From: an uncultured delta proteobacterium
GTDB lineage: Bacteria; Desulfobacterota; Zymogenia; Zymogenales; Zymogenaceae
Assembly (NCBI GenBank): GCA_963792965.1
Contig: CAWBYW010000009.1
Span: forward strand, 96,001 to 160,000
DNA: 64,000 nt
Reading direction: 5' to 3'
The notes below the pieces were generated by a model. That model ran no database searches, was not told where the DNA came from, and worked only from the letters and a program-made list of their open reading frames with translations. Positions 5,819 to 64,000 of this stretch are shown in pieces; the first letter of the stretch is position 1, and each line of letters begins with the position of its first letter. The translations under genes were made by a program, and so were the position numbers.

Positions 5819-5833
5819 TGGCACGACGATTGC
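5819..5833 (+). promoter_or_regulatory. sigma54 -24/-12 promoter
   Basis: TGGCAC-GACGA-TTGC matches the consensus; IHF-like TAACCAATTGAAA at 5781-5793. Confidence 0.8.
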
Positions 5834-5923
5834 TCTTAGAATACTCAGCCGCGATTACGCATCAATATAGGCCGTTGGTCATGCCTCGGTCGGATGTGTA
5901 GCGCTAATACGTAGGAGAAAGCC

Positions 5924-6613
5924 ATGACACATTTGAAAGCAGTTGGTGTTCCGCCCGATCTCGTTCCCGTTTTCGAAGCTGCTGAAGAAAAAATCAAGGG
6001 ATTCTTCGACACCATTAAACCCTATCCCGAAAAGGGGAGAATAGAGATCGGTGGAACAAGGTTCATGTGGGCCCAGGCGCGCGGAATGGCGCTTTCTTTC
6101 CGTGATACGATAATAGACATATACGGTGAGAAAGGGACTGAACAAATTCTGTATAAGTTCGGCCACTCCCTCGGTTCTCACGAGGCCAAGGCCTTCATCG
6201 AGCGCTTCAAACTGAAAGATCCGGTGGAAAAGCTTGCGGCGGGCCCGGTCTACTTCGCCTATACCGGCTGGGCATTCGTCGAATTTCTCCCGTCCAGCAG
6301 GCCCGCTCCGAATGAGGACTGCATTTTGACGTACAACCATCCCGGCTCTTTTGAGGCCGAGTTCTATCTCGCGGACAAGAAAAAAGCCGACCACCCCATC
6401 TGCTTCATCAACGCCGGGTATTCGTCGGGGTGGTCGGCGGAAAGCTTCGGTCTCCCGCTCGAGTCACGGGAGGTCACCTGTCAGGCGCGGGGAGACGAAC
6501 ATTGCACGTTCGTTTTGACCCACCGCAACAAGATGCTGGAGAGGCTCGAGAAATTCAGAGAGCTCCTGAAGACGAAGAAACGCTCCGAGATTACGACGGA
6601 AGACCTGCTCTGA
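5924..6613 (+). CDS. Stand-alone XylR-N/V4R domain protein (copy A)
   Basis: GPVYFAYTGWAFV, SFEA, PICFINAGYSSGW...EVTCQARGDEHCTF; no output domain; RBS AGGAG. Confidence 0.85.
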   Translation: MTHLKAVGVPPDLVPVFEAAEEKIKGFFDTIKPYPEKGRIEIGGTRFMWAQARGMALSFRDTIIDIYGEKGTEQILYKFGHSLGSHEAKAFIERFKLKDPVEKLAAGPVYFAYTGWAFVEFLPSSRPAPNEDCILTYNHPGSFEAEFYLADKKKADHPICFINAGYSSGWSAESFGLPLESREVTCQARGDEHCTFVLTHRNKMLERLEKFRELLKTKKRSEITTEDLL

Positions 6614-6670
6614 GGACGGTTCGAAAGACTGTTGAAGAGGTTGAGATTTGCATGCTCTCCAAGCGGCTGG

Positions 6671-6787
6671 GGGCGCGGCATGGCCCTTGCTTTCCGAGAT
6701 ACTATGCCCGATACCTACGGTGAAAAGGGGACGGAATAGACCCTCAATAAATTCGACCAATCACCGGGCTCCAGCAAAGCGAAGGGA
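6671..6787 (+). pseudogene. Decayed fragment of a third XylR-N/V4R paralog
   Basis: Translates GRGMALAFRDTMPDTYGEKGTE*TLNKFDQSPGSSKAKG versus ARGMALSFRDTIIDIYGEKGTEQILYKFGHSLGSHEAKA in copy A; TAG at 6737. Confidence 0.75.
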
Positions 6788-6840
6788 ATTGTATAACATC
6801 AAATCCTTATCCTGAACAATATTCACAGGAGCCAGCCATT

Positions 6841-7446
6841 ATGAGCGGCGATGAGAAAATGGCGACGAATATGTCCATTCGGGCGGCCGTCGATTGTTTC
6901 ACCGAAATCATGGGGAAGAACGGTGCGAGAATAATCTTCAGGAATGCGGGGTTCGAGCACATCTATGACACCCCCCCGCCGTACGACTTGAATCCTAATA
7001 TTTCCGTAGAGTCACAAACTCGACTCTATATTGAGGTCGCCCAACTCGTCGGGCTCAAAGGAGCGCTGAGCATATGGAGGCGAGTCGGATATGCAGCCGT
7101 AAAATACGGGAATGAGTTCGGCCATGCATTTGACGCATATACAGATCTTCCTCCCGATGAAAAATACAACAAATCCAGCGAGCTCCTCTCGATGGTGATC
7201 GGCAAGGGGAAGACAGTGATGAGTGGCACGGGGAGGGTTGATTTTGACTGCTTTGACTGCACGGTATGCTCCCCGTACTTCTCCTCGGAGACCAAGAGGC
7301 CGGTTTGTCTTCTCTATACGGGTGCACTTCAGTATATTGCCGATTGGGCGTACGGGAAAAACGCCGCACAGGTCGTCGAGACGAAATGCAAGGCAAAGGG
7401 TGACGACACGTGCTACTACGAGCTGGTAATGACTGAGCCTTCTTGA
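6841..7446 (+). CDS. V4R (4-vinyl reductase) domain protein, different subfamily
   Basis: EIMGKNGARIIFRNAG, CFDCTVC, PVC...ETKCKAKGDDTCYY. Confidence 0.8.
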   Translation: MSGDEKMATNMSIRAAVDCFTEIMGKNGARIIFRNAGFEHIYDTPPPYDLNPNISVESQTRLYIEVAQLVGLKGALSIWRRVGYAAVKYGNEFGHAFDAYTDLPPDEKYNKSSELLSMVIGKGKTVMSGTGRVDFDCFDCTVCSPYFSSETKRPVCLLYTGALQYIADWAYGKNAAQVVETKCKAKGDDTCYYELVMTEPS

Positions 7447-7736
7447 TATGACCTGCTTGGCCGGGTTGTCCGCTCCCGTAGCGGCTGCTGAAGACAGATC
7501 CCGATGAGGGGGTAGCCGACAGCAACGATCCCCCCAAAATGTCATCCTTACCTTTGAACGAATCAAAGCGTAATCCCATATCTTCCGCCTTTTCATCTAT
7601 CGCGATCCCCGCAAATCTGACAGTGGAGATTAATAAGCCAAGAGGAAAGTCGCCATGGCGATTAACCTCCCTCTCGATAATGCCAAAACAATAGAAGATA
7701 GTATGCTGACATATGATATTCGTTTTTATGCGCATG

Positions 7737-7752
7737 TGCAAGAAATCTTGCA
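7737..7752. promoter_or_regulatory. Putative upstream activator site TGCAA-N6-TTGCA (copy 2)
   Basis: GTGCAAGAAATCTTGCAC near-perfect palindrome, 203 bp upstream of the sigma54 -24 box at 7940. Confidence 0.6.
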
Positions 7753-7939
7753 CCCTTGATTTTCGGAAATACCAATGATAATAGGCTGTTTCCCGAAACG
7801 TGACAAGAATTATGCATAGCGCGCCTCCCCTCCCCCCGGCCAAACGGATATAGGCTCGACAGGTGAGCCATTAGGATAACAAACTAAGTGTTTTCTTCTA
7901 TAACCAGTTGATGTCGCTTAAGGCTCCCCGCGCCTAAGG

Positions 7940-7954
7940 TGGTACACTATTTGC
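7940..7954 (+). promoter_or_regulatory. sigma54 -24/-12 promoter
   Basis: TGGTAC-ACTAT-TTGC; IHF-like TAACCAGTTGATG at 7901-7913. Confidence 0.75.
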
Positions 7955-8048
7955 TACTTACCATATCTTGGCCGTAAATACTTACCGGGCAAGATAGAAA
8001 GTCAGGCTCTATGTCGGATAGATTACATCAATTAGTAAGGAGAAATTC

Positions 8049-8738
8049 ATGACAGCATTGAAAGCAGTGGGTGTCCCACCCGATCTTGTTCCCGCCTTCC
8101 AGGCCGCTGAAGAAAGAATCAAGGGATTTTTCGATATGATTAAGCTCTATCCCGAAAAGGGGAGGATAGAGATCGGCGGCACGAGGTTCATGTGGGCACA
8201 GGCGCGCGGAATGGCGCTTTCTTTCCGTGACACGATAATCGACATATACGGTGAGAAAGGGACTGAACAAATTCTGTATAAGTTCGGCCATTCCCTCGGT
8301 TCCTACGAGGCCAAGGCCTTCATCGAGCGTTTCAAGTTGAAAGACCCGGTGGAAAAGGTCGCGGCGGGCCCGGTCTATTTCGCCTATACCGGCTGGGCAT
8401 TCGTCGAATTTCTCCCGTCCAGCAGGCCCGCGCCGAATGAGGACTGCATCTTGGCATACAACCATCCCGGCTCCTTCGAGGCCGAGTTCTATATCGCGGA
8501 CAAGAAAAAGGTCGACCATCCCATCTGCTTCATCAACGCCGGATATTCGTCCGGGTGGGCCGCGGAGAGCTTCGGCCTCCCCCTCGAGGCCCGGGAGGTC
8601 ACCTGCCAGGCGCAGGGAGACGAACATTGCACGTTTCTTCTGACCCACCGCAACAAGATGTTGGAGAGGCTCGAGAAATTCAGAGAGCTCCTGAAGACGA
8701 AGAAACGCTCCGAGATTACGACGGAAGACCTGCTCTGA
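8049..8738 (+). CDS. Stand-alone XylR-N/V4R domain protein (copy B)
   Basis: 229 aa; 15 substitutions versus copy A by manual comparison (~93% identical). Confidence 0.85.
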   Translation: MTALKAVGVPPDLVPAFQAAEERIKGFFDMIKLYPEKGRIEIGGTRFMWAQARGMALSFRDTIIDIYGEKGTEQILYKFGHSLGSYEAKAFIERFKLKDPVEKVAAGPVYFAYTGWAFVEFLPSSRPAPNEDCILAYNHPGSFEAEFYIADKKKVDHPICFINAGYSSGWAAESFGLPLEAREVTCQAQGDEHCTFLLTHRNKMLERLEKFRELLKTKKRSEITTEDLL

Positions 8739-10443: not shown

Positions 10444-10722
10444 ATGAAAAACAGAAAAGTGGTGAGCTTTCTGATCTCGCTGTTCTCCCCGATCCTCCCT
10501 ATCGCCGCCGTTCTCCTCATTGACCGAATCGAACAGGCGGCAGCTCTCCTCGTTGTCTCGGTCATCATCCTGGCCGTGGTGGTCTGCTCGGTGATTATGT
10601 TGTTGAAGACAAAGGAAAAATCGCCGGGGATGAAGATCATCGGGACGATCTGTGCCGTCCTCGGCATTCTGATCACGGTGATCGTCGGACTTATCGCCGG
10701 ATGGACGCTGACGAAGATATAG
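10444..10722 (+). CDS. Small membrane protein (3 TM)
   Basis: Hydrophobic 92 aa, RBS GGAG, directly after the peptidase gene. Confidence 0.7.
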   Translation: MKNRKVVSFLISLFSPILPIAAVLLIDRIEQAAALLVVSVIILAVVVCSVIMLLKTKEKSPGMKIIGTICAVLGILITVIVGLIAGWTLTKI

Positions 10723-10744
10723 TCCGGATAAAACGCCACATTGA

Positions 10745-10777
10745 GGGGGGAACCTCCCGGAGGTCCCCCCTTTCTTT
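10745..10777 (+). terminator. Rho-independent terminator
   Basis: GGGGGGAACCTCCCGGAGGTCCCCCC hairpin followed by TTTCTTT. Confidence 0.7.
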
Positions 10778-11196
10778 GTGGCACGCCGGTTAAGCCCGGA
10801 AGCCCGGCATCATCCTTTCACGCGCTTTTTGGCCTTATGCCTTCCACGAGAAACATCCGTCCGGCCTGGCCACGTGCCGGCACGACGTTTCATTGCTCCT
10901 TCCCCGTGCAACACGTCAGCAACTTGCCCGAAGCCGCTCCATGATGGGGCCCGTAAGGTGATCGTGGAGTAACCTGTTATTATTATCTATTCCGCACCAC
11001 GACAAAGAGGGAATCCGCGCGGACCCCCCGCGCCGCCCGTCGAACCATGACCGTTCATCTCTGCAACAGATCAACCAATCGTCACGTGAAAGGCCCCCTC
11101 GGCCCCCGAGACCCCCCAAAAAGGCCAAAAAAACGTGAAAACGGGGCAAAAGACGGCACAATCGGAGGTCTATACCCGGCCTGCCTCACGACTCTG

Positions 11197-11211
11197 TGGC
11201 ACGCGGATTGC
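11197..11211 (+). promoter_or_regulatory. sigma54 -24/-12 promoter
   Basis: TGGCAC-GCGGA-TTGC, 66 bp upstream of the small ORF at 11277. Confidence 0.75.
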
Positions 11212-11276
11212 TTAATAGAAGACAGAGAGAAAGTCAGAACGCGTTTTCAACAGCGCTCGTAATGGGGGGAAAGACG

Positions 11277-11363
11277 ATGAAAGATGACGACGTTGGAAGC
11301 TGGATCATGGTTGTTCTCATGCTTTTTTTAACGATGTATCTGTTATATATGACCGTCGCCTGA
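11277..11363 (+). CDS. 28-aa single-TM small protein (paralog 1)
   Basis: MKDDDVGSWIMVVLMLFLTMYLLYMTVA; G-rich RBS; paralog at 12462 differs mostly at synonymous sites. Confidence 0.8.
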   Translation: MKDDDVGSWIMVVLMLFLTMYLLYMTVA

Positions 11364-11527
11364 AGACGGCCGAACAAGGGAGTGAGTGGAAATCGAGTGG
11401 AGTTTTGATAGGCAAACCGGCCGCGGACTTCGCGCCGTCCTTTATCTCTCTCTTCTCACCTTCCGCTCATTGCATCCGGCAAAGTCGCGAGCGTTTCATT
11501 AGTAATTTTAGCCTGCGCGGTGGAACT

Positions 11528-12076
11528 ATGAAAGTCGGTGAGTTTAAATTCGACGAGCTCTTGAGCTTTGACCCTCATTGGGGACAAATCCTCTTCAAAG
11601 GCGAAGATTTACGCAGGATGAGCGCCGAGTCATTCGGAGACCTCCTCAATGAAACCATCGATATCGCCGGACCCAACATGGCCCGGGTATTGATGGAGCA
11701 CATCGGCCGCACCGCCGGAAAGAGCGACGCACACACGATCAGGGAAACGCGTCCCGCCGGGACCGATCTGGACTGGCTGGCCTTCGAGCCCACCATCCGT
11801 ACCTGGGAGGGAATCGTCGAAGGGGTCCCGGAGACCGTAGACATCGACCGGAGATCGGGAAGGTTTTACATCAAGGGGATCTGGAAGAACTCGTTCTTTG
11901 CCGAACAGTACGTCAGGCATTTCGGGAAGTCAAAAGACCCGGTCTGCTGGTTATTGAACGGATACGCCACGGGCTATGCGAGTGAGTTCTTCGGCGCCCA
12001 CCTTGTCGCGCGTGAGCTTACGTGCAGGGGAATGGGCGACGATGCCTGCCGCTTCGAGATCGCGCCCATGCAGTAG
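11528..12076 (+). CDS. Stand-alone XylR-N/V4R domain protein
   Basis: GIWKNSFFAEQY, DPVCWLLNGYATGYASEFFG...ELTCRGMGDDACRF; stops right after V4R, no AAA+ domain. Confidence 0.85.
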   Translation: MKVGEFKFDELLSFDPHWGQILFKGEDLRRMSAESFGDLLNETIDIAGPNMARVLMEHIGRTAGKSDAHTIRETRPAGTDLDWLAFEPTIRTWEGIVEGVPETVDIDRRSGRFYIKGIWKNSFFAEQYVRHFGKSKDPVCWLLNGYATGYASEFFGAHLVARELTCRGMGDDACRFEIAPMQ

Positions 12077-12461
12077 CACGCCCTCTCTCCGGCCGACGCG
12101 CATGGGGCCCCGCCTTCTATTCGGTATCGCCGTGGGGTCGGGGGCGGATTTCACGGCCTGGTGGAATCGAGACCCGAATCGACGCCCCCAAGGGGCATTG
12201 CGTCAGGAGCCGCACGATCCGTAGATCAAATACGTTCATGCCCGTTCCATAGAAAAGACGATTGCAAAAACCACCGTTACCCCGCACACGCGTGGCCCCA
12301 TACCGTATAAAAAAGGTTACGGACAAGGCAAAATTCTCCGCAAACAGAAGTTTACTGTTAGCTGCGTCACAGCTCAAGCGATAAGAGCTGTTAACATGGA
12401 TGATGAGAGATGAACCGAAATACCTATGGTTTCGATAGTGCGGAAAATGAGGAGACAAGCA

Positions 12462-12548
12462 ATGAAGTATGATGATGTCGGTAGTTGGCTTATGGTGATT
12501 ATTATGCTCTTCCTGACGATGTACCTCCTTTATATGACCATCTTCTAA
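12462..12548 (+). CDS. 28-aa single-TM small protein (paralog 2)
   Basis: MKYDDVGSWLMVIIMLFLTMYLLYMTIF; RBS GAGGAG; 22/28 identical to paralog 1. Confidence 0.8.
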   Translation: MKYDDVGSWLMVIIMLFLTMYLLYMTIF

Positions 12549-12850
12549 TATCACTCGGAGAGCATTCGACGACGGACGACGACCACCGGATGTCTCCGCC
12601 ACCCCTCTCCACGCCCGCCACAACTTTCCTTCACGCATTTCAGAACGACGACACCTCGCCCGTAATTTTAGCCCGGCTGACCCTCTGCATTTTCGCCCCT
12701 GGCCCGTCCGGAAGACGCATGCGCTTACACTCGGGGGGGATAATCGTGGGCGGCGGTGGGGGCACACAGGCGAGATACCTTCGTAACCTTAGGGCGGGCC
12801 GGCTTCTCTTGAAGGAAGCCAACGGCGTGCTCAGGAAAGTTCTATCTTCT

Positions 12851-13265
12851 TTATTTCTTCTCCTTTACCGTTGCGATGGTGAGCTTCTCAAACCCCGCCC
12901 GTTTCGCGGCGTCCATGACGGACACGACCGCCCCATGCGTCGCGTCGGAGTCCGCCCGGATGACGATATTCCCGGAGGGATTCGTTTTTTTGAGCGCCGG
13001 TGAGCTTATCCAGAAGAGTATCCGGAGTATAGGCCTGGTCTTCCATCATGATCTCGTTTTGCCTCGTCACCACCACGACCACCTCCTCGCCCGGTTTTGG
13101 GAGCTCTTCCACGGCGGATTTGGGCAGCTCCACCTTGAGGCCGGACGGATGGACAAAGGTCGTGGAAAGGACGAAGAATATGATAAGGTTGAGCACCACA
13201 TCGATAAGAGAGGTCAGGTTAATAAATACCTCTCCCTGCGATTTTGCCTTTTTCCTGAAGTTCAT
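12851..13265 (-). CDS. exbD: ExbD/TolR biopolymer transport protein (frameshift near 12975)
   Basis: INLTSLIDVVLNLIIFF; C-terminal ...AGFEKLTIATVKEKK* lies in another frame. Confidence 0.85.
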
Positions 13266-63374: not shown

Positions 63375-63388
63375 ACTACTAATAGATT

Positions 63389-63403
63389 GCAACAGTCGTG
63401 CCA
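63389..63403 (-). promoter_or_regulatory. sigma54 -24/-12 promoter of the orp-like operon
   Basis: Minus strand TGGCAC-GACTG-TTGC; IHF-like ATTCAACATATTA near 63442. Confidence 0.8.
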
Positions 63404-63624: not shown

Positions 63625-64000
63625 TTAGAGCAACTGGTGCTTTTTCATCTTTCTCCAGAGGGTGGACTTATTCAGATTGAGGGCTTGAGCGGTCTTCACT
63701 CTGCTTCCCTTAAAACGAGCGAGTGTCTCCGCGATAACCTGTCTCTCGGCCTCTGCTGTCACGTCTCTGCAGTCGCGCGGATCAGCGGAGATTTGCACTC
63801 CACTCGCAGAAACATCGCCAAGGGTGGCTCCTCCGAATATCTCCTGAGGAAGATCTCTTGCGGTAATCCATTCCGATCGACAGAGAACAGCCCCGTGCTC
63901 GATGATATTTTCCAGTTCCCTCACGTTTCCAGAATAATCGTAGCGCATAAGATGATCCAGCACTTCGTCGCTTACCCCGGCGATCTCCTTGCCCAGCTTC
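63625..64000 (-). CDS. sigma54-dependent activator (bEBP), C-terminal part (OrpR-like by context)
   Basis: YDYSGNVRELENIIE AAA+ lid and Fis HTH TAQALNLNKSTLWRKMKK; truncated by window end. Confidence 0.9.
   Translation of the reverse strand, partial: KLGKEIAGVSDEVLDHLMRYDYSGNVRELENIIEHGAVLCRSEWITARDLPQEIFGGATLGDVSASGVQISADPRDCRDVTAEAERQVIAETLARFKGSRVKTAQALNLNKSTLWRKMKKHQLL

Follow-up and report, generated by a model that had tools for sequence, protein, structure and literature searches.

Bacterial single-pass regulatory microproteins, a functional class that includes KdpF, MgtS, AcrZ, MgrB, PmrR and CydX, are about 30 residues long, with one hydrophobic helix, almost no soluble part and a tiny gene of their own that is often induced by a dedicated signalling system. 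Here we describe two 28-codon genes with similar traits, located in a 64,000-nucleotide window (positions 96,001 to 160,000 of the forward strand of contig CAWBYW010000009.1, assembly GCA_963792965.1) from an uncultured member of the Zymogenaceae; its class, Candidatus Zymogenia, has been described as a rare, uncultured and fermentative lineage of the Desulfobacterota. As in the known regulators, conservation on one face of the helix fits helix-helix packing. The likeness does not extend to sequence: there is no recognisable relationship, and no Pfam or NCBIfam model, that of KdpF (Potass_KdpF) included, matches at E ≤ 10 any of the nine members scanned. The genes also differ in having no adjacent cognate partner operon (no Kdp ATPase occurs among the neighbours scanned at three loci), in being under sigma-54 and enhancer control, and in the acidic N-terminus of their products. 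We propose, with moderate confidence, that they encode a lineage-restricted single-pass membrane microprotein that modulates a membrane target, and whose principal copy is under sigma-54 enhancer control shared with a diguanylate cyclase operon.

A family of 28-codon genes

The two genes of the window and the putative ribosome-binding sites before them are as follows.

11277..11363, + strand: microprotein copy 1, 28 amino acids plus stop, from translation
12462..12548, + strand: microprotein copy 2, 28 amino acids plus stop, from translation; without a recognisable promoter of its own
11264..11273, + strand: Shine-Dalgarno-like run GGGGGGAAAG before copy 1, read from the sequence
12449..12454, + strand: Shine-Dalgarno GAGGAG before copy 2, read from the sequence

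Both open reading frames (ORFs) were first noticed in an original prediction made from the letters of the window alone, and a recount agrees with it in each particular: the peptides are 28 residues long and share 22 of them (BLASTP, 22/27 identities, E 2e-15), and 13 of the 16 identical residues other than Met and Trp are specified by different codons. The purine-rich ribosome-binding runs that it described lie 4-8 nt 5' of the two ATG codons, and a run nearly identical to that of copy 1 also precedes a third paralog, copy 3, a 28-codon ORF found on another contig of this genome by a six-frame genome search. Outside the ORFs the copy 1 and copy 2 loci yield no convincing DNA alignment, giving only gaps and scattered matches, as had also been predicted. 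The coding sequences agree at 60 of 84 nucleotides, and between them the Nei-Gojobori method counts 16.0 differences that are synonymous and 8.0 that are not (pS about 1.0, pN 0.12).

Two features of this pair may be noted separately. Copy 1 (11277-11360) and copy 2 (12462-12545) differ at all of their synonymous sites, such that pS exceeds the ~0.75 expected at saturation, and both coding sequences have a GC content of about 40%, compared with 58% for the window.

The homology search across the Desulfobacterota that had been suggested finds a real family, with ten copies from six sources: this genome (three copies), four metagenome-assembled genomes (MAGs) of a sister genus, two of which have two copies each, and one metagenome contig (L059). 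Among 61 related genomes, convincing matches are restricted to this genome and all four genomes of the sister genus. A profile built from nine sequences and searched against 401 genomes of the phylum returned exactly those nine ORFs at E ≤ 2.4e-14, all other matches being partial, mostly within long frames, and at E ≥ 0.007. For wider collections the query was a degenerate DNA pattern based on the invariant columns; it matched 15 stretches in the GTDB species set (five real, all in the same four MAGs, and ten by chance), seven in the JGI metagenomes (one new copy) and four in viral contigs (none real). A phage or mobile origin was rejected because none of the four viral matches is real. As far as these searches reach, the family is confined to two genera of one rare, uncultured bacterial family.

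The original prediction did not recognise the peptides as members of any known family, and library searches of Pfam, NCBIfam, PADLOC, PHROGs and the PDB likewise return nothing above threshold. The best sub-threshold matches are to MitoNEET_N (0.0055) and DUF2633 (0.011), each with three of nine members, and to a PHROG at E 0.12, with none in PADLOC; the best PDB profile match, to a transmembrane segment of the ZnT3 zinc transporter (E 0.59), was taken as chance. In a collection of 5.8 billion proteins the family appears only as an over-long 40-residue call of copy 2 from this genome. A literature word search, which did not extend to the supplementary tables of the Zymogenia preprint, found no mention of this peptide, nor of any microprotein under sigma-54 control in this lineage. 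On this evidence the peptides are a previously undescribed small-protein family of a kind already known. At 87 nt, the genes are shorter than gene callers usually accept.

All ten copies are exactly 28 codons long with conserved ATG and stop, and with ten homologues of fixed length, start and stop the window ORFs are far beyond chance expectation. The family is under purifying selection, as the prediction had claimed from the first two copies, judging by the pattern of substitutions: dN/dS is below 1 in 34 of the 36 pairs with finite dS and above 1 in two (45 pairs in total, nine with saturated dS having been set aside), and the numbers of variable alignment columns at codon positions 1, 2 and 3 are 18, 11 and 24 of 28 each.

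The peptide has two parts, and its predicted architecture of an acidic N-terminus followed by a single hydrophobic helix is borne out by charge and hydropathy throughout the family. Residues 1-8 are acidic, and the peptide as a whole carries a net charge of -1 to -3; a hydrophobic stretch follows at residues 9-28 (mean Kyte-Doolittle 1.7-2.3), flanked by W9 and Y24 and long enough to span a bilayer, insertion being predicted only. The peptide ends 2-4 residues past Y24 with no charged residue there. Nine residues are invariant in the ten copies (M1, W9, M15, L16, T19, L22, L23, Y24 and T26), and conservation falls on one helix face formed by W9, V12, M15, L16, T19, L22, L23 and T26, with a helical-wheel conservation moment of 0.284 that was equalled or exceeded in 245 of 10,000 shuffles. 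This suggests a helix that packs against a membrane partner or against itself.

The same residues bear on whether the peptide could bind soft metals (Cu/Ag), as had been offered as one possibility, or form a small homo-oligomeric channel whose lining would be a stripe of Met and Thr (M/T11, M15, T19, T26). Each peptide carries 2-6 Met among its 28 residues, M15, T19 and T26 are invariant on one face, and an M11xxxM15 motif occurs in seven of ten copies. Of the Met positions 11, 15, 20 and 25, however, M15 alone is fixed, and three of the ten copies have Thr at position 11, which is unlike the Ctr1-type MxxxM motif; there is no significant similarity to metal-binding helices, the ZnT3 match being the best in the PDB, and no metal-resistance or transport genes are among the neighbours scanned. 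The metal-binding proposal is thus weak, and we regard either form of it as highly improbable.

Promoters, enhancers and transcripts

Copy 1 is preceded by an array of regulatory elements, listed here from the promoter outwards.

11197..11212, + strand: sigma-54 promoter TGGCAC-N5-TTGCT, exact consensus; 64 nt between 11212 and the copy 1 ATG
11118..11152, + strand: phased A-tract block between enhancer and promoter; near base-for-base match to this genome's cyclase-operon promoter
11052..11076, + strand: proximal enhancer (upstream activating sequence) site with TGCAAC at 11062, about -135 from the promoter
10885..10927, + strand: distal enhancer (upstream activating sequence) region with TGCAAC at 10907, about -290 from the sigma-54 -24 element

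The sigma-54 promoter had been predicted, and the element, an exact consensus at copy 1, is conserved in five orthologous copies, lying about 80-84 nt before the ATG in six of the ten copies overall and keeping its -24 GG and -12 GC elements at canonical spacing. The window contains four matches to this element at ≤1 mismatch, compared with 0.91 expected. Upstream of it, position-conserved enhancer sites can be anchored in 11 promoters, six of them peptide promoters (including that of metagenome contig L059) and five belonging to a second, cyclase-encoding operon: TGCAAC is present at -117 to -138 in all 11, and TGCAAC or GTTGCA at -275 to -312 in 6/6 peptide and 5/5 cyclase-operon promoters. 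The sister-genus form of the distal site is an inverted repeat, GTTGCA-N11-13-TGCAAC. These hexamers are rare: the 64-kb window has seven, and the genome as a whole 0.12 per kb. The A-tract block may have a role in DNA bending. The genome encodes rpoN (one full Sigma54_DBD match) and has 13 Sigma54_activat matches to enhancer-binding proteins (EBPs), and the promoter and enhancer sites together argue that the peptide is part of a sigma-54 circuit, as the prediction had it.

This arrangement resembles NtrC-type sigma-54 promoters in its exact -24 GG/-12 GC spacing, in its two activator sites more than 100 nt upstream, one an inverted repeat, and in the A-tract or IHF-like region between these sites and the promoter. 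It differs in that the half-site GTTGCA/TGCAAC, with its spacer of 11-13, was matched to no characterised EBP, and in that the regulon here appears to hold only two conserved targets.

The second target emerges from a search of the five peptide-bearing genomes with the pattern TGCAAC-N115-145-TGGCAY-N5-TTGC, which gives 11 matches, the reversed control giving none. Five of these are peptide promoters, five are one orthologous second promoter, and one is an extra site in one MAG; five genomes of the same family without the peptide show pattern matches at only two unrelated genes. The distal site, which the search pattern did not include, is likewise found at all five second promoters, between -280 and -297. 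These promoters lie upstream of genes for an 87-residue protein and a 471-residue PAS-PAS-GGDEF protein, the operon occupying G000:C13:180600-182543 in this genome (L078 4601-6543). The shared layout suggests one EBP with two conserved targets, the peptide gene and the cyclase operon, and the two are likely to be co-regulated. The 87-residue protein is encoded in nine of ten genomes of the family, with two paralogs per genome; it belongs to no Pfam family, and the ESM Atlas gives only unnamed 88-residue clusters. Among the few members of these clusters with a record, the commonest phylum is Myxococcota.

None of the 13 EBP matches in this genome adjoins a peptide gene, and genome-wide clusters of TGCAAC/GTTGCA give no pointer to an autoregulated EBP. 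A tree was built from 62 EBP cores (11 from this genome, 25 from two sister-genus MAGs and 26 from three genomes of other genera), leaving out two short rows, four genomes in full and two EBPs from one genome, and in it four orthogroups are confined to the two peptide-bearing genera. One of these contains a 977-residue EBP of REC-4xPAS-AAA+-HTH architecture (C35:75296-78226 in this genome), in a starred clade with one row each from MAGs G007 and G009 and none from the three other-genus genomes. In each of the four sister-genus MAGs its sensor half finds a match at 59-71% identity, compared with ≤37% in other genera. A peptide gene lies 17-25 kb from this EBP in each of the five genomes, and the sister genus keeps the same order of peptide, intervening block and EBP as copy 3 of this genome. 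We consider this protein a candidate activator, nominated by phylogenetic pattern and position, and not a finding.

A related EBP, of PAS-AAA+-HTH architecture, crosses the end of the window (63628-64000, - strand), and downstream of it are TGCAAT/ATTGCA sites and a sigma-54 promoter (63388-63403, - strand). The layout recurs around a 67%-identical relative in another genus, there before a small protein.

Extra paralogs would use other promoters. A sigma-70-like promoter matching at 10/12 positions and a strong terminator with a 12-bp stem accompany copy 3; in two of the sister-genus MAGs the first copy has a sigma-70-like site matching at 9/12, and its ORF is immediately followed by a terminator-like site. 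The peptide genes of the sister genus are monocistronic; beyond them, and beyond copy 3, lie terminator-like hairpins or genes in convergent orientation, with no conserved downstream gene.

Short, tightly controlled transcripts of this sort raise the question of whether the functional product might be an RNA, either a sigma-54-driven small RNA of the Qrr type or a leader in which the peptide is incidental. The sister-genus and metagenome copies do share blocks in the 5' untranslated region (UTR), GGAACAC ... TGTCTAnAC[CG]GTA ... GGAG, in 7/7 cases and with any promoter type (L063 9740-9820 and 10500-10577, with equivalents in L064, L065, L066 and L059), and a similar GC-rich hairpin lies 45-80 nt past the stop in six of these seven, the exception being metagenome contig L059. 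Against an RNA product, nucleotide changes are distributed as in a coding sequence, saturating the synonymous sites and preserving the protein and its length; Rfam gives no match at E ≤ 1 in window positions 10700-13000, and a consensus fold of the sister-genus 5' UTR (-1.07) shows no structure. A leader peptide or upstream ORF would be expected to precede a conserved structural gene in the same transcript, and none was found. We therefore give an RNA or leader function barely any credence; a Met-attenuation leader in particular was rejected because the Met positions are not conserved.

Short, hydrophobic, multicopy (three copies in this genome, two in each of two MAGs), monocistronic and tightly regulated genes also recall type I toxins of the Hok, Ldr, Ibs and TisB class, and the peptide could be toxin-like or a stress peptide that depolarises or permeabilises its own membrane and so arrests growth, its paralogs being comparable to those of hok, ldr and ibs. 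No toxin model in NCBIfam, Pfam or PADLOC is matched, however, and the peptide is acidic, not basic, with no charged or polar C-terminal tail; its conservation is limited to one helix face and is not one of general amphipathicity. The good sigma-70-like promoter of one copy would be odd for a toxin. Nor is an antisense gene recognised: the opposite strand shows a single promoter-like match (9/12) in the window and another in the sister genus, no more than is expected from shuffled sequence. A toxin-like function accordingly seems unlikely to us.

A predicted membrane microprotein and its possible targets

Under the proposal of a sigma-54-controlled membrane microprotein, the ORFs would be genuine translated genes, their products having an acidic eight-residue N-terminal tail and a helix of 19-20 residues bounded by W9 and Y24. 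The principal copy (copy 1 and its orthologues) would be transcribed from the sigma-54 promoter when an EBP binds the two TGCAAC/GTTGCA sites about 135 and 290 nt upstream, and the same enhancer layout would drive the operon for the 87-residue protein and the PAS-PAS-GGDEF diguanylate cyclase, so that the microprotein would be made together with the cyclic di-GMP (c-di-GMP) signal; extra paralogs would be transcribed from sigma-70-like promoters. The peptide would insert into the cytoplasmic membrane, where its conserved face may pack on a partner transmembrane helix or on itself, and this packing could modulate a target by analogy with other bacterial small membrane proteins.

Several observations weigh against this proposal. 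Conservation of one face fits homo-oligomerisation equally well as partner binding, no partner gene is conserved beside the peptide, and the neighbourhoods differ between the two genera. Co-regulation with the cyclase is argued from motif architecture only. With ten sequences from two genera the family is tiny, and its selection statistics are noisy as a result: dN/dS is above 1 in two pairs and 0.98 in another. The sequencing runs listed for this locus include one DNA run, with a share of 0.06, and no RNA run, and translation is something that we infer. A scan of the copy 2 locus shows neither a sigma-70-like match nor TGCAAC sites. With regard to the candidate activator, three other EBP orthogroups have the same two-genus pattern, and in two of the four sister-genus MAGs its match is spread over several frames and contains a TAG or TGA (G007:C7:1042084-1044032 and G005:C5:903992-905424); these MAGs have few contigs, and assembly error or decay are both possible.

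A more specific version of the proposal would make the peptide the membrane arm of a minimal two-target sigma-54 regulon, in which the REC-PAS4 EBP switches on both the diguanylate cyclase and the peptide, the invariant Met/Thr face of the peptide gates a membrane target of the c-di-GMP response or forms a small pore, and the paralogs have been rewired to constitutive promoters. In this detailed form it is improbable; if true, it would represent a new type of sigma-54-controlled membrane micro-effector. For the broader proposal of a co-regulated membrane microprotein, should the link to the cyclase hold, the peptide would be a testable entry into signalling in Candidatus Zymogenia and a sigma-54-controlled addition to the known small membrane regulators. 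The family illustrates cleanly how a microprotein gene under selection can have a promoter, an enhancer and a terminator of its own, in an unusually well defined regulatory context, and its wider impact is limited by its narrow distribution and missing function.

V4R genes and genomic neighbourhoods

In this genome the two window copies flank a sensor-like gene.

11528..12076, + strand: XylR_N+V4R gene between copies 1 and 2 (Pfam V4R 1.4e-15, XylR_N 2.9e-13)

It comes third among the XylR_N+V4R genes of a cluster in the window, and fourth among the V4R genes as a whole. No terminator is predicted between copy 1, this gene and copy 2, and since copy 2 has no recognisable promoter of its own, read-through is plausible: copy 2 is probably read through from copy 1, and co-transcription of the intervening gene with copy 1 is likewise probable, and confined to this genome.

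It had been suggested that the peptide is a membrane partner or modulator of such standalone XylR_N/V4R sensor proteins, a proposal in keeping with the flanking arrangement and with the lack of a predicted terminator between copy 1 and the V4R gene, with the sigma-54 promoters of other V4R genes in the window (the genes at 5924-8738 have them at 5819-5834 and 7940-7955), and with the presence of V4R genes within about 7-10 kb of the peptide at other loci examined. Proximity of this kind is cheap, because the five peptide-bearing genomes, of 2.9-3.8 Mb, contain 39, 34, 38, 41 and 33 V4R matches. No V4R gene is adjacent to the peptide in the sister genus, where the orthologous cluster (L082 5315-7588) is a sigma-54-driven operon of three V4R genes without the peptide; a 61%-identical ortholog of the window 11528 gene lies in that operon with no peptide neighbour. 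The synteny with V4R genes is thus not conserved, and neither of the V4R promoters at 5819 and 7940 has TGCAAC sites, from which it follows that the flanking arrangement is a rearrangement specific to this genome. Only about eight residues of the peptide, moreover, would lie outside the membrane. We judge a specific partnership with V4R proteins very unlikely.

The V4R proteins show two further features in their own right. Standalone XylR_N+V4R sensors without an AAA+ domain are greatly expanded in these genomes, with 33-41 V4R matches in each. One V4R protein (5924-6613, compared with L082 5422-6108) is 95% identical between the genera, its neighbouring orthologs being 56-61% identical, which points to unusually strong constraint or to recent transfer.

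The neighbours scanned at three loci include V4R, peptidase M28, esterase, patatin, NrpR, enoyl-CoA hydratase and MFS genes, and the sister-genus peptide locus is flanked by genes for an esterase, a patatin-like protein and an NrpR-like regulator. A region of this genome syntenic to the sister-genus peptide locus (G000:C13:36000-36800) has no peptide and contains an ORF that by eye is methyltransferase-like. Copy 2 is followed by a convergent ORF (12888-13265, - strand) that is 81% identical to its sister-genus counterpart and that may encode an ExbD/TolR-type protein, judging by a motif in its translation.

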